Shown here piece after piece: positions 21,421 to 49,797 of a stretch of 64,000 nucleotides of DNA (positions within the stretch are counted from its first letter, which is position 1; each line of letters starts with the position of its first letter). The notes under the pieces are model-generated. The model ran no database searches. It was given only the letters and a program-made list of their open reading frames with translations, and was not told where the DNA came from. The translations under genes and the position numbers were made by a program. The stretch comes from Ginglymostoma cirratum (taxonomy: Eukaryota): the NCBI GenBank assembly GCA_024137785.1, contig JAHRHZ010000264.1:16271946-16335945 (forward strand). Reading direction: 5' to 3'.

Positions 21421-22095
21421 ATGAGTGAAGGTAATAGGGATCATTTTCTAAATTTATGTTATTGGCAGGGAACCTCACTGCTGGCTTACACCCATCAGGA
21501 AGCAAACTTGCAGTTTCCTGGTGTGTGCCCTCCATTGGCTAATCTCTCCCTTGCAGCACCAATTTGGAAAATCAGTCCTCAGTCTATTCAAACATTGATG
21601 TTGAACTAAAATTGCTGTACCTCTCACCTGATAATATAATAAGCCCAGGGAGTTCAAAAAGTAGAAGGAAAGATCAAGAGAAAATCAAATGGAAAAGATG
21701 AAGAAAAAAGAGTTGACAATTCTATCTTGATCAGTATTTCGCCAAGTTTATCTCATCAGGTCCCTAAAAGCAGTAGCTTTCCTGTTAGATCTACTTAGGA
21801 AATCTGATATTAACTTAGTGGCATAGTTCATTTACAATAATATTGTAAAGGTGGTGTGAAATAGATTTTCTTCACATTGATGTAACAGAAATGATACAAA
21901 TGCAGCTTAATTCCAGAATTGACAATTTGCCATTTATCAACGTAAAACTCTCCGGAGGAGTTAATTTCCCTGTGCCTCACAAATTCAAATTTGGTTACAG
22001 TGGAAACCGATGCTGAAAATATATCTAAAATGTGAAGGCAATTGGCCTAACCACTATCCATTAAGTACTGCTGGAAAGTGAATGCTGTCTAGGAT

Positions 22096-22309
22096 CAAAG
22101 GCAGAAAGGACGGCAGATGCTGGAAGCTCAAATAAATAAACGTGGGGCTGAAAAAGTACAGGTCATACAGCATCTGAGGAGCAGAGAAGTGAACATTTTG
22201 GGCCAAAATCCTTTATCGGTCCTGCTGAAGGTTTCGGCCCGAAACGTTGACTTCCCTGCTCCCCGGATGCTGTCTGACCTACTGTGCTTTTCCAGGTCCA
22301 CATTTACTA
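22096..22309. mobile_element. Short PLE-derived inverted-repeat insertion with decayed hammerhead
   Basis: Left arm ~22115-22218 and right arm ~22221-22305 are imperfect reverse complements; flanking direct repeat tctaggat at 22088-22095 and 22310-22317. Confidence 0.75.
22218..22252 (+). ncRNA. Minimal hammerhead ribozyme, mutated core (CUGCUGA)
   Basis: GGTC-CTGCTGA-A-GGTTTCGGCCC-GAAA-CGTT-GACT; stem I GTC/GAC; conserved A6 replaced by C. Confidence 0.55.
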
Positions 22310-25039
22310 TCTAGGATTTGGATTGGTTAAATTGATGGTTGTGGGCAGGAGGTCAGATCCTGAGACACAGAGGAAGTGGTGTCACGAATCGGGGAAGGAG
22401 GGATTGTTGTTATTTCTGGAGTATGGAGAGGAGTAAAATTGGTTTTGGGCTCAGTGTGCAATGGTGGTTCCTGGGGGTATCAGGTCAGCATTTAAGGGAT
22501 GTCTGGTGACTCAGGAAGGTGTAGTTGAGGATGTGTGAGAGATGAGTTTGGAGTTGGTTTAATAGTTACTCAGAAGTTGACTATGTATTCAATTGTATAA
22601 CTTTTCATTCATCAAACTCCTAACTTAACAGTGTCTAAACCATCCAAAGTATCCAGTTTTTTTTTCCCCCAGAGGGTACCAGGTGTACAGGGCTTGTCTG
22701 GTGAATAGTTCAATTTCTCAGGCAATTTCTATGACAACGCTACAATCCAGATTCTGCAGTATCCCCATGAATACTACACTAGAATAATGACTGACTATTG
22801 GAAAATCTGCTTCAACATCTTCAATATAGATAGCCCAAAAGCACTGATTATATAGCATTGCAAATATTTATAAAGCCAATTTAATAACTTCCCAGAAACT
22901 TAAGTACTTGACCAGCTCATCACGTCTTCACAAGCATATAGTTTTATCATCATACAGAAAGTGAAACAGAGTTGTCTGAGGGAGGTTTTTCACTCACCTT
23001 CAATAATTTCTCAATAAACTTTGTCATGCTTTCTCTAGCTGAATAGACAGCAATTTAATTGAAAATTTGCTCATAGCTATTTAGTAAAATATAATTGTTT
23101 TTGTTCAGCCAATAAAAGTTTCTTAAATATAAGCCTCCTTTTTTTCTGCATTTAATGTCTATTTGGAAAACATTAAACTGTGCTTCAGAATCTATTGTTT
23201 TAATTTAAAGAACACTCGCTGAGACATGCAAGGTCAGCAGCTCTGCCATGAACAATGACGGCTAGATTGATATCGAATATGTGCGCACAAATGTCAAGCC
23301 CATGTCAGCTTATAGAAAATGCATACAGTGGCCCAGCGATCAATGGACGCTGTCAGACACTGATGTCTCAGCACAATGATCACCTTGCACTGTGTTTTAG
23401 TAATTCGTCCTTAAAACATGTGAATTTACATTTATTCCATGTTGATCATTAGAACAAACAAATGACAGAGGAGAGAGAAATGGAAGGGGAATGATAACAA
23501 GGCACAATGCGGGAGAGGAGGAGTGGTATTACTGAAGAGGTGAAAGAGATGGGGAGACAAAGGTGAAGGGAAGAGAAACTTTTATTCTATAGACTTCAAT
23601 ATACCTGATACCCTTAGCTACGGATTAGTGAAAAGGGTTGATGATATTTTGTTAGGGCTAAGTTTTGGAAAGGGTTGGAATGGTACAAAAGTTGATGTAT
23701 GGTGCTTGAAAGTCACTGTTTAAACCTTAGCATATCTTTGTGACAATTCTTGCAGCATCCAATGCCTAATCTGGTGTTAACTACTAACCTGTGTTAAAGG
23801 AGTGGCTTAACTGAATTTTCTACATTGAATAATATCTTCTGTCTGTGCTCATGTACTGACAAACATTTATTTTAATAGGACAAATTAAACAAAAGTCAAG
23901 AATCTCCAATTTTTTTTCTTTGGTCCCGTTTCACTTCTATTGAAATAATTCAGTGAGACATCTGCCCACCTGCAACTTGCACTCCTGACCAGGGTCATTT
24001 CCCAGGATCAGAAACATTGGAATATTTTGGACAGGTGGTGTCACTTACAACTTCACTGGGGGACCCAGCTATGTAGCCTCTGAAATCAATCGCTTTCAGG
24101 AAAATTCAACATCTCCCCACTCCCTAACCAGTCCACATACTTTTAACAACACTGTAATGCATTATGGTTACGTGGTTGAAATTGACTGTACAGCATAACT
24201 AGTTTATTTCACATTTCACAACCAGTTTCTGTGTCCTTTTGGGCCACTTTATTTCATCTGCCTTTTAATCTAATCTTAATTGTTGACATGATTCTTGTCT
24301 CATGCACTAGCCCTCTATTATTAAGGCTGTCTCCAAGAAGAAGTTCCTCCTGCCATCTGTTCTAAATCTGTGACATTTAATCTAGTTATGACCCTTAATT
24401 CTTGACCCACAACTGCTAAAAACAGTCTTGCATCTTTCAGCCCACCCCTACGCTTTGATAATTTTAATTAATTCTTGTTTCATGATATAAACTGCATTGT
24501 TTTTGTCAACGAAAACTCAATTTTACAAGCCTTGGGATTTGTATTTTTGATTTGAATGTCTGGGAACGTGCTGTCCTCAGTATTGTTTGAGTATGTGCAA
24601 TAACATGTATGTGTACGATATTTCCCCTTATTTATGTATTGAATAATTCAACCACATATTTGCCAGATATCTTACACACCTATTCCCACTCACAGTGCAA
24701 GCGTAGACAGGCGCAGAAGTGTCTAGAACCAAATGAAATCCATCTGATTTTACACTGCAGTTGCCCAAATTATGTCAGGTTATTGGTGCAGCAACAGAGA
24801 AAAATCAAGGTTGGAATGTTCTTGACTCCCATAAAATTCAGCCATCTGATTTGTGAGACTCCGTTTATAAGAAGCTAAATGACTTGAAAAATAAAAGTAA
24901 GCTATGAATCTCACTGTAAAGTAATAGCATGGAACATATAGGGAGATTGAGAATAATCGTAGTTAAGTACCCTTTACATGATTTTTAAAATTATTAAATG
25001 CCTTCAGGTAAAAGAATGCAGTTTCTCATTTATACATAC

Positions 25040-25240
25040 TCATTTACTTCTTGTGATTCCGTCATTATCGATGACGAGCATGCACATTTAGCCATCCAGC
25101 ATGCTGATCTCAACATCAATAACATCCTCATTATTCTAGTTTAGAAAGCAGGAAAATACCCTACAATAAAGCATCTTATCAAAAGACGTGTCCAGCCACT
25201 CTTTCCCAGGAATTTAGTAAATATATTGGATCAGCTTGTT
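25040..25240 (+). repeat. Dispersed repeat copy 1 (homologous to ~26585-26790)
   Basis: acatttagccatccagcatgctgatctcaacatcaataacatcctcattatt versus acatttaaccagctagtatgctgatctcggcattgataacttcctcattatt; both followed by atatattRgatcagcttg. Confidence 0.6.
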
Positions 25241-47823: not shown

Positions 47824-48223
47824 NNNNNNNNNNNNNNNNNNNNNNNNNNNNNNNNNNNNNNNNNNNNNNNNNNNNNNNNNNNNNNNNNNNNNNNNNNNNN
47901 NNNNNNNNNNNNNNNNNNNNNNNNNNNNNNNNNNNNNNNNNNNNNNNNNNNNNNNNNNNNNNNNNNNNNNNNNNNNNNNNNNNNNNNNNNNNNNNNNNNN
48001 NNNNNNNNNNNNNNNNNNNNNNNNNNNNNNNNNNNNNNNNNNNNNNNNNNNNNNNNNNNNNNNNNNNNNNNNNNNNNNNNNNNNNNNNNNNNNNNNNNNN
48101 NNNNNNNNNNNNNNNNNNNNNNNNNNNNNNNNNNNNNNNNNNNNNNNNNNNNNNNNNNNNNNNNNNNNNNNNNNNNNNNNNNNNNNNNNNNNNNNNNNNN
48201 NNNNNNNNNNNNNNNNNNNNNNN
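47824..48223. other. Assembly gap (400 N)
   Basis: N run. Confidence 0.99.
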
Positions 48224-48239
48224 GGCCTAGACCCTTCAT

Positions 48240-48273
48240 TTTCTGATGAAGGGTCTAGGCCCGAAACGTCGAG
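48240..48273 (+). ncRNA. Minimal hammerhead ribozyme core with GUC cleavage triplet
   Basis: CTGATGA (48243-49) - A - GGGTCTAGGCCC - GAAA (48263-66) - CGTC; stem I weak in this copy (TTT/GAG). Confidence 0.7.
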
Positions 48274-49797
48274 TTTTCCTGCTCCTATGATGCTGCTTGG
48301 CCTGCTGTGTTCATCCAGCCCCACGCCTTGTTGTCCCAGCACTGTGTTTGTCTCATCTGGAGGAAGTATTATCGAGGTTAATCAACTCTGTTGTACCTCC
48401 TGATGGGACCTACAGCTGCAACTGCATCATGTGGAGGCTGTTCAGCACTCGCTGTAGGTCCTGTTGTTCGTGCGTTTACTGGCAAATCTGTCCCTGCTCC
48501 ATTTCTCGGCACCTTCGCTCAACTCCAGCAACAGCAATAATAACTTCTGCTGTGGCTGGATCCATCCGACACACTTGCGATGAACCTTTAGATGACAATG
48601 GGACATGGAGCAAACTGACAAGGAAGGCTATGGAATGCCTCTACATGCGAATGTTTAATGGGGACCTTATACTGATGAATTCATCAGCAGTCGTGTCACA
48701 GTATGATAACAGAAGAGTGTAAATGCTGTATGAGATTTGAGACCTTGGCCTCTCAGCCCCAGATGTTCCATGAAAGGCAGCATTGCTTATATGAGCACAT
48801 CAGAGAATACTCACAGTTCAAGGCAAGAAGGAATCCATTCCGTGCCCTTGTGCAGCCTGTGAGGTTTTGGATTACTTTTGTAAATTATGGCCTGTGGGTT
48901 CCACTTCTGTGGTCAGCTCTGATTATTTTAGCTTCACGGCGATGACCCTCGGCAGTCTGGAATGACCAGTATTTGGACACATGCATTTCACATGCACAAT
49001 GCTATGATTACAAATGACTTCAACCTGTACTGTGAAAGAGCCTGGTTAATACCACTTGTCCCTTGAAGGAGCCTCACACCATTCAGTGGAGTCTGCACTG
49101 TGGACAGAAAACAAAACAGATTCTGTCCACTCTGGGTACAGTCTCAGTGATTTTCCTTTTGTAGGGCACATTTACAAGTTGCATGAGTATGGGGGACAAA
49201 GCAGGCCTGGGTTGGCGCAGTGCGTGGCAGGCTTAGCCTGGTATTCAAGGAGCCTTCCTGAACCTCCGAGATCCATAATTCCTGGCATTTCCTGGTCAGC
49301 CCATTAGTACTGAGCAGTTGCATGTCCCAACTGTTAAATGGGCTTACACTTTCAGCTGCTAATGTTACCTCCTGAGCCCCAGCCTTACAGTTTAGTAATG
49401 CCCACAATCATACAGCTCTGTCTCCCATCAAAGCCTCTGTGGTGGTGACTGTCAATGAGCCTTCACCTGCAGTATCCCATGTCCTCCATCGCACTGTCGC
49501 CCTCTTTATATATTGACTTTCCTCCATTCACCACTCTTCTCTCCTCTGCATCCCAGAATTGACTTCTCTGACTTCATTACCACATCAGTTGCCCCTGATA
49601 GTGCCACACTCCCCACCTTTCATTGACCCATCCCCAGGGATGATTGTACCTGCCCCTAACCAACTTGGACAGACAGCTGCCACTGATGAATAAACTATCC
49701 CCTGACTGATCAGTGTGCAGCCCCTGACCAAATTTCCTTTACTGTTTGCACTGGACCTGTAGGATTAACCATGGCACACTCCTGGGCTGTTGTGATG

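Follow-up and report, generated by a model that had tools for sequence, protein, structure and literature searches.

A 64,000-nt stretch of the genome of the shark Ginglymostoma cirratum (contig JAHRHZ010000264.1, forward-strand positions 16,271,946 to 16,335,945; hereafter the window) carries four short insertions, E1 to E4, built from a segment that bears a hammerhead ribozyme motif. We call each such segment an arm, and E1 to E4 hold seven of them. A sequence-only reading of this DNA had proposed four insertions with target site duplications (TSDs), and flanking direct repeats of 8-15 bp are indeed found at all four. E1 (22096-22309) lies between 8-bp repeats identical at 8/8 positions (22088-22095 and 22310-22317), E2 (27050-27861) between 13-bp repeats matching at 12/13 (27037-27049 and 27862-27874), E3 (29801-29946) between 15-bp repeats matching at 14/15 (29786-29800 and 29947-29961), and E4 (47695-48331) between 14-bp repeats identical at 14/14 (47681-47694 and 48332-48345). 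A comparable direct repeat occurred in only 8 of 1500 random end pairs in a window control. The three head-to-head inverted repeats described earlier, with the hammerhead nearest the centre, were likewise recovered as E1, E2, and E4, while E3 is a single arm without an inverted partner. A profile search of the window returned eight strong matches, the seven arms and a copy at positions 1-75, all of them included in the profile, and two further, weak matches, that at 30261-30313 with E 0.0012 and that at 32716-32797 with E 0.04. The reversed window gave no match better than E 6. The arms form three subfamilies that are 60-69% alike, namely E2 with E3, E4 with the copy at 1-75, and E1 by itself. 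Within elements, the two arms differ at 22 of 86 columns in E1, 4 of 95 in E2, and 2 of 86 in E4. Arms cover 936 bp, or 1.5% of the window, and from this local density a high copy number genome-wide is plausible.

Read in the ribozyme sense, an arm consists of part of helix I, CUGANGA, one extra A, a helix II of 4-5 bp, GAAA, CGU, and residue 17, the cut site, followed by an outer end that lies either 61-68 nt (short end) or 96-106 nt (tail end) past the cut. The tailed arm of E1 (22096-22219, minus strand) has a decayed hammerhead with C3 at 22219 and residue 17 at 22192, and ends in a 35-nt tail (22096-22130); its short partner (22220-22309, plus strand) keeps 2 nt of helix I, has core position A6 changed to C, and places C3 at 22222 and residue 17 at 22248. 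The short arm of E2 (27050-27148, minus strand; C3 27144, residue 17 at 27115) has 4 nt of helix I and an altered helix III, and the tailed arm (27719-27861, plus strand) carries a complete minimal type I hammerhead and a 41-nt tail (27821-27861). E3 is a short arm of the E2 subfamily (29801-29901, minus strand; C3 29898, residue 17 at 29869) with an intact core and a 2-bp helix I, followed by filler (29902-29946, plus strand) whose last 14 nt resemble a tail end at 12/14 positions, which is not significant. We rejected the right end of E3 as a tail remnant, as 168 of 1975 random segments score equally high. The tailed arm of E4 (47695-47823, minus strand; residue 17 at 47799) begins 3 nt inside the core and has a 43-nt tail. 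On the other side of E4 (48224-48331, plus strand), a junction made of 16 nt of inverted arm and TTT leads into a short arm with an intact core, no Watson-Crick helix I, C3 at 48243, and residue 17 at 48270.

Two further copies had been described as remnants. This fits the arm at 32716-32797 (minus strand), which is old and decayed, with the core box kept and helices II and III eroded; none of 300 random pieces scored as high, and no TSD was found around it. It does not necessarily fit the copy at 1-75 (plus strand), which belongs to the E4 subfamily, comprises the 3' part of a tailed arm truncated by the edge of the window, and is 89% identical over 74 nt to the left arm of E4 (profile E 3e-13). 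The decayed arm is itself flanked by a local duplication of about 230-270 bp whose copies (32255-32484 and 33129-33396) are 874 bp apart. The stretch around 30233-30415 may be a fifth, very old element, with an arm on the minus strand at about 30233-30337 and, on the plus strand, a weaker part that ends like a tail. Its candidate arm is weak (profile E 0.0012; 1 of 300 controls as high). Candidate arms at 38921-39136 were rejected, with 56 of 300 controls scoring as high.

Both gaps of exactly 400 N in the window fall inside E2 (27318-27717) and E4 (47824-48223), between the arms, so the full lengths of these elements and the centre of E2 are not readable from the assembly. A third gap in the window (45061-45216) lies outside the elements. 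The flanks of the E4 gap share a 16-bp overlap, 47808-47823 being identical to 48224-48239, and the junction can be read in the contiguous sequence to the right of the gap. From this overlap E4 is probably a hairpin of about 221 bp that broke the assembly, similar in length to E1 (214 bp), and its gap is likely a false one. Palindromic elements of this kind seem to cause assembly breaks. At the centre of E2, at least 169 bp (27149-27317, minus strand) between the arms derive from a long interspersed nuclear element (LINE), five copies of which in the window match it at 76-86%. This DNA is a mosaic in which a piece of the reverse transcriptase (RT) region, with a QHGF..LTNL motif that we take to be of CR1 type, is joined to a piece from near the 3' end; it contains an 11-nt local duplication, lacks the terminal ~150 nt of the LINE, and meets the arm at AAAAG/helix I. 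It may have been captured by the machinery that made E2, or inserted later at the hairpin tip. Seven 3' ends of a LINE family, presumably CR1-like, lie elsewhere in the window (6526-6710, 36618-37105, 39387-39508, 46319-46522, 50670-51022, 59361-60561, and 61497-61674).

In all three two-armed elements the tail is present on exactly one arm. Within the tailed arms GATGCTG pairs with CAGCATC in the tail, and the seven pairs of this distal hairpin are invariant in 3/3 tailed arms, although these come from three subfamilies of only 62-69% similarity. In the tailed arm of E2 the hairpin lies at about 27776-27784/27833-27841, and the inner GCTG/CAGC hairpin of the tailed arms is predicted to be 93% paired. 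The short end sits inside the hairpin, which would therefore form only in tailed RNA. Judged on sequence, the hairpin is supported by conservation and not by covariation. It had escaped the sequence-only reading, as had the one-sided tail, both 400-N gaps, and the LINE DNA in E2.

The hammerheads are mostly not intact. A descriptor of the minimal hammerhead (core, helix II, and palindromic ACGT) is passed by three of the seven arms, against a mean of 0.09 in 100 Markov sequences, and a helix I of at least 4 bp is present in one, the tailed arm of E2 (motif 27726-27755). In that arm helix I pairs 27719-27725 with 27756-27762, the core starts at 27726 and is followed by the extra A, a 5-bp helix II, and ACGT, and the predicted cut falls after 27755. 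The remaining arms are, by their sequence, recognisably decayed or cut hammerheads, with core lesions that include CTGCTGA in E1 right, CCGATAA and AAAATG in E1 left, GAAACAC in E2 left, and the loss of CTG in E4 left. The claim that the core is kept throughout is thus not borne out. At least three stem II variants do exist as claimed, but they differ by one change of U-A to U-G and by loop length, and that of E1 pairs poorly and looks decayed. Core boxes and the GGG/CCC pairs of helix II are common to the subfamilies; none of five helix II pairs changes on both sides, so the proposed selection on RNA structure finds no covariation to rest on. An Rfam scan of the window gave no match to a hammerhead model at E up to 1. 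In predicted folds the whole of E1 reaches -101 kcal/mol, and in both whole E1 and the E4 junction arm-arm pairing reduces the probability of helix II to 0. The isolated short arms of E1 and E4 likewise give a value near 0, and the E2 tailed arm alone gives 1.0. From these models, most of the genomic hammerhead copies are predicted to lack ribozyme activity, and whole-element transcripts to fold into arm-arm hairpins that sequester them. No element has two intact ribozymes, and the junction removes most of helix I. A working hammerhead read from whichever strand is transcribed, as had been suggested, is not supported.

Where the inversion falls is more regular. All seven arms run across residue 17, and arm ends defined by cleavage are rejected on that ground. 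The six visible inner ends, counted relative to C3, lie at -2 and 0 in E1, -4 in E2 left, -3 in E3, and -2/-3 and +3 in E4, where those of E2 left and E3 were set by sequence divergence; the right arm of E2 extends to at least -7 before the gap. The inner ends are therefore confined to 8 nt at the boundary of helix I and the core, 24-33 nt upstream of the cut site, so that the inversion is at the ribozyme, as proposed, but not at the cleavage site. If ends were uniform over 60 positions, an 8-nt span would arise by chance with a probability of 0.007 for four independent ends or 0.00016 for six. We consider this clustering at helix I likely to be genuine. The short arms of E1 and E4 hold 2 and 5-6 central bases, respectively, that are absent from the tailed arm, yet have no tail, and those of E1 are sense-strand helix I bases. 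Each arm thus has bases that the other lacks, and neither is a full template for its partner.

The sequenced parts of E1 to E4 have no coding capacity, in line with the non-autonomous status assigned to them earlier. A Pfam scan of 36 window open reading frames (ORFs; 35 of the 77 of at least 90 aa, plus one 28-aa piece) gave one weak RT match, inside a LINE at 59361-59666. A motif search in six frames found no GIY-YIG endonuclease in the window, of which the two 400-N gaps are not readable. The autonomous partner with RT and GIY-YIG that the sequence-only reading had suggested looking for is thus not among the window ORFs scanned, and we do not file E1 to E4 as autonomous endonuclease-containing (EN+) Penelope-like elements (PLEs), since no PLE domain turned up in those ORFs. 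No coding frame is conserved across the subfamilies, so the arms as the start of a PLE ORF were rejected. Unlike a tRNA-derived short interspersed nuclear element (SINE), the three tailed arms share no Pol III A/B box pair, and there is no tRNA gene. The elements do share with insertions composed only of PLE pseudo-long terminal repeats (pLTRs) the inverted head-to-head copy (E1, E2, and E4), a tail at one end, TSDs of variable length, and a minimal type I hammerhead. The extra A of that hammerhead and its ACGU helix III agree with the PLE derivation put forward before, and an origin from PLEs is in our judgement very probable. On sequence features, E1 to E4 likely behave as truncated or non-autonomous PLE insertions, neither autonomous PLEs nor retrozymes.

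A profile of six arm translations searched against 1.84 billion proteins gave four matches. The three named ones are two Rhincodon typus gene models and one of Heterodontus francisci, both galeomorph sharks, consistent with the elasmobranch host range suggested earlier. One Rhincodon typus model, P0011, reads through an antisense arm followed by a sense arm, of the E2 subfamily, with 28 of 32 residues identical to the translation of 27718-27813, and its two C3 positions are separated by 11 nt that can all be accounted for as pieces of helix I. Arm sequence is translated within P0011, P0012 (a PIKfyve-like model of Heterodontus francisci, at both its ends), and P0013; these translations are probably annotation artefacts, although exonisation may occur. 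Searching proteins by word index, with an arm translation against longer proteins and with the P0011 junction, found nothing further, and four matches from a pattern scan of GTDB were rejected, as none extends past its seed. A window LINE ORF has nine homologues, of which the five named are Rhincodon typus models. PLEs are reported to be expanded in whale shark introns (10.1101/443036).

We assign a probability of roughly 0.6 to the reading that E1 to E4 are ORF-less head-to-head pairs of 90-145 nt pLTR ends of shark PLEs, inserted in trans by way of twin-primed cDNAs; for twin priming as the route, argued by analogy, we see even odds. What we observe is the anatomy of the elements, a tail confined to one arm, the passage of every arm through the cut site, and arm ends that cluster; the enzymatic steps that would connect these observations run as follows. 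A PLE reverse transcriptase-endonuclease acting in trans would make a staggered cut, giving the TSD, and the two nicks would prime separate cDNAs, whose internal starting points on the RNA would be the short end in one case and the tail end in the other. The GATGCTG/CAGCATC hairpin, which spans both start sites, would be the likely recognition or start structure. Both cDNAs would continue across the uncut hammerhead as far as its 5' edge and end there, to be joined, perhaps with the aid of short self-complementary stretches at the boundary of helix I and the core (AG-TC-CT in E1, TCAGA-GT-TCTGA in E2). Candidate causes of the stop are the 5' end of the RNA, a structural stop, or annealing at those stretches. 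An uncut template would account for the passage of all seven arms across residue 17, and matches the behaviour of the PLE protein of Anolis, which cleaves and extends both strands of the DNA, begins synthesis at two internal positions on the RNA, one on either side of the tail, and takes uncut RNA as its template; in vitro, ribozyme cleavage is unnecessary for its insertion (PMC11167929). The hammerhead would then be inherited from the parent pLTR and not maintained for activity on two strands. A bolder version, which we regard as possible and rather doubtful, is that sharks carry abundant ORF-less palindromic PLE mini-elements whose inversion is set by the ribozyme fold, with RT starting at the tail hairpin and stopping at helix I without cleavage.

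Several observations weigh against this account. None of the four protein matches is a PLE protein, and the Pfam scan returned no PLE domain. The TSDs are not clearly A+T-rich (0.43-0.77, compared with 0.51-0.64 in the flanks and 0.60 in the window). The single two-sided change in the distal hairpin falls at a CpG, and as many such changes are found in 165 of 500 shuffles; the fold z-scores of the tailed arms are -2.1, -0.7, and -2.2. The positions at which the arms stop may mark no more than where a short parent element has its 5' end, and E3, without a second arm, may be a counter-example to clustering. So may the candidate at about 30233-30415, whose plus-strand part has no hammerhead (9 of 300 controls as high). 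The tailed arm of E4 is tied to its junction only across a gap, later loss of a few bases at the hairpin tip could mimic the asymmetry of the arms, and P0011 is one predicted protein, not DNA, from one copy, whose coding sequence may include a splice.

The same evidence bears on other routes to such elements. It is possible that a palindromic mini-element of 215-245 bp with a set centre arose once per subfamily and was since copied whole, in trans, by a PLE enzyme. The close sizes of E1 and gap-closed E4 would follow, and the ends of the E2 arms (4 and 7 nt of helix I), minus the LINE DNA, would give the 11-nt centre of P0011. However, recurrent joining at microhomology would yield the same centre, the centres of E1, E4, and P0011 differ, and E2 and E3, of one subfamily, share only 3 nt upstream of the core; a fully paired RNA would also be a poor template, given the predicted fold of E1. 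We find this unlikely. Snap-back synthesis, in which one cDNA or an antisense RNA folds at the ribozyme and primes the second arm, which the endonuclease then trims at the tail boundary, would account for a tail on exactly one arm in all three cases and for the near-identical arms of E2 and E4, and self-priming, including that of antisense RNA, has been proposed for head-to-head PLE junctions (Arkhipova et al. 2013; PMC3846280). Against it stand the central bases of the E1 and E4 short arms that the tailed arms lack, in E1 sense-strand helix I bases: unless tip bases were lost later, two syntheses fit better than snap-back, which we consider quite improbable. A related form, self-priming at stem I, would be expected to leave the second arm without a core, and this is not seen in E1, E2, or E4.

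The retrozyme-like element of the sequence-only reading, selected for a hammerhead from either strand and spreading through circular RNA, could draw on the core boxes and GGG/CCC pairs common to the subfamilies, on the completeness of the E2 tailed arm, for which a swapped dimer is predicted within 2 kcal/mol of two monomers, and on the report of retrozymes in one chondrichthyan (bioRxiv 10.64898/2026.07.22.740005). Retrozymes are defined by head-to-tail tandem hammerheads on the same strand (PMC7229834; bioRxiv 10.64898/2026.07.22.740005), and no such tandem occurs in the window, where all visible arms are single or inverted, although the gaps could hide more. Opposite-strand hammerheads cannot pair in cis, helix II is lost in the E1 and E4-junction folds, helix I is kept in one of seven arms, and no arm ends at the cut site, so that we hold this origin to be very improbable. 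Least of all do we expect a miniature inverted-repeat transposable element (MITE), a DNA transposon with long terminal inverted repeats and a hammerhead-like sequence by chance. Short, non-coding elements with inverted arms and flanking direct repeats do resemble MITEs, but TSDs of 8, 13, 15, and 14 bp, ends that differ by a tail of 35-43 nt, the lack of terminal symmetry, and arms that meet at the centre already largely refute it.

The window holds other repeats as well. A short interspersed repeat with a SINE-like look, unrelated to the arms, is present in three copies (1678-1852, 58710-58946, and 62554-62767), and further repeats in two copies each (5563-5656/47279-47377, 9662-9750/47385-47472, and 25081-25135/26624-26678). 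CA-repeat and poly-C tracts lie at 12797-12990 and 49787-49902, one of which gives a chance mir-297 match. Two weak Rfam matches to microRNAs, one of them over the E1 hairpin, were rejected as chance.

The shark copies bear on two unsettled matters, the way in which PLEs produce insertions that are inverted and tailed and the function of their weak hammerheads. If the clustering at helix I holds genome-wide, these copies would offer a large natural record with which to test twin priming against self-priming and to test for a non-cleaving role of the hammerhead. If the ribozyme fold does set the inversion, the PLE hammerhead would be a structural stop and joining site, a role without cutting, and thousands of copies would show where PLE transposition starts, stops, and joins its products in vivo. 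As for RT recognition, the conserved distal hairpin offers a concrete candidate element. On the practical side, the hairpins appear to cause false assembly gaps and to leak into shark gene models. Literature searches gave no description of this shark family or of a junction fixed at helix I, with subscription papers outside the coverage, as were repeat databases, in which the family may already be catalogued. Since layouts of this general kind have been described before, the elements are not a great surprise; the two details that stand out are the junction at helix I, for which we found no printed precedent, and the distal hairpin.

Among known systems, PLEs have an inverted 5'-truncated copy, a one-sided tail of 30-40 bp, and trouble in assembly (PMC8557442), and those of Adineta have TSDs of 8-10 bp, palindromes at the points where copies join head to head, and stretches of unrelated DNA caught between pLTRs (PMC3846280). 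The shark elements resemble such EN+ PLE insertions (Penelope/Poseidon, Neptune) in their inverted segments, one-sided tail, TSDs of about 8-10 bp or more, palindromic junctions, foreign DNA, and assembly trouble. They differ in having no ORF in the sequenced parts, arms of 90-145 nt, and hammerhead cores 0-11 nt apart, and their junction is pinned to helix I, which the passages on EN+ PLEs in these two papers do not describe. Minimal hammerheads of metazoan PLEs are of type I, with an extra base between positions 9 and 10.1, a G10.1-C11.1 pair, and a palindromic helix III; several families occur per genome, mostly as single motifs from truncated PLEs, and dual opposite-strand motifs lie 100-700 bp apart (Cervera and de la Pena 2014, PMC4209133). 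The shark arms share the type, the extra base, the G10.1-C11.1 pair, the palindromic helix III, the several families, and the opposite-strand pairs, but their helix II has 4-5 bp in contrast to 7-8 bp in Schistosoma and their opposite-strand motifs lie side by side; that paper, in the parts covered, does not name sharks. Like non-LTR retrozymes (PMC7229834; bioRxiv 10.64898/2026.07.22.740005), the shark elements are non-coding, hammerhead-bearing, related to pLTRs, and found in a chondrichthyan, whereas those retrozymes are head-to-tail arrays that release circles by two cuts on the same strand and the shark elements are inverted pairs with helix I mostly lost. In the Poseidon element PAc of Anolis (Frangieh et al. 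2024, PMC11167929) the ORF begins at helix II and RT initiates at +111-118, which lies 85-92 nt beyond the cut in an AC-rich stem-loop, unlike the shark ends at 61-68 and 96-106 nt past the cut, which lie in U-rich sequence and in arms where no conserved reading frame was found. With PAc the shark elements nonetheless share two 3' ends that define a tail past the hammerhead, a stem-loop in the start region, and an apparently uncut RNA template.

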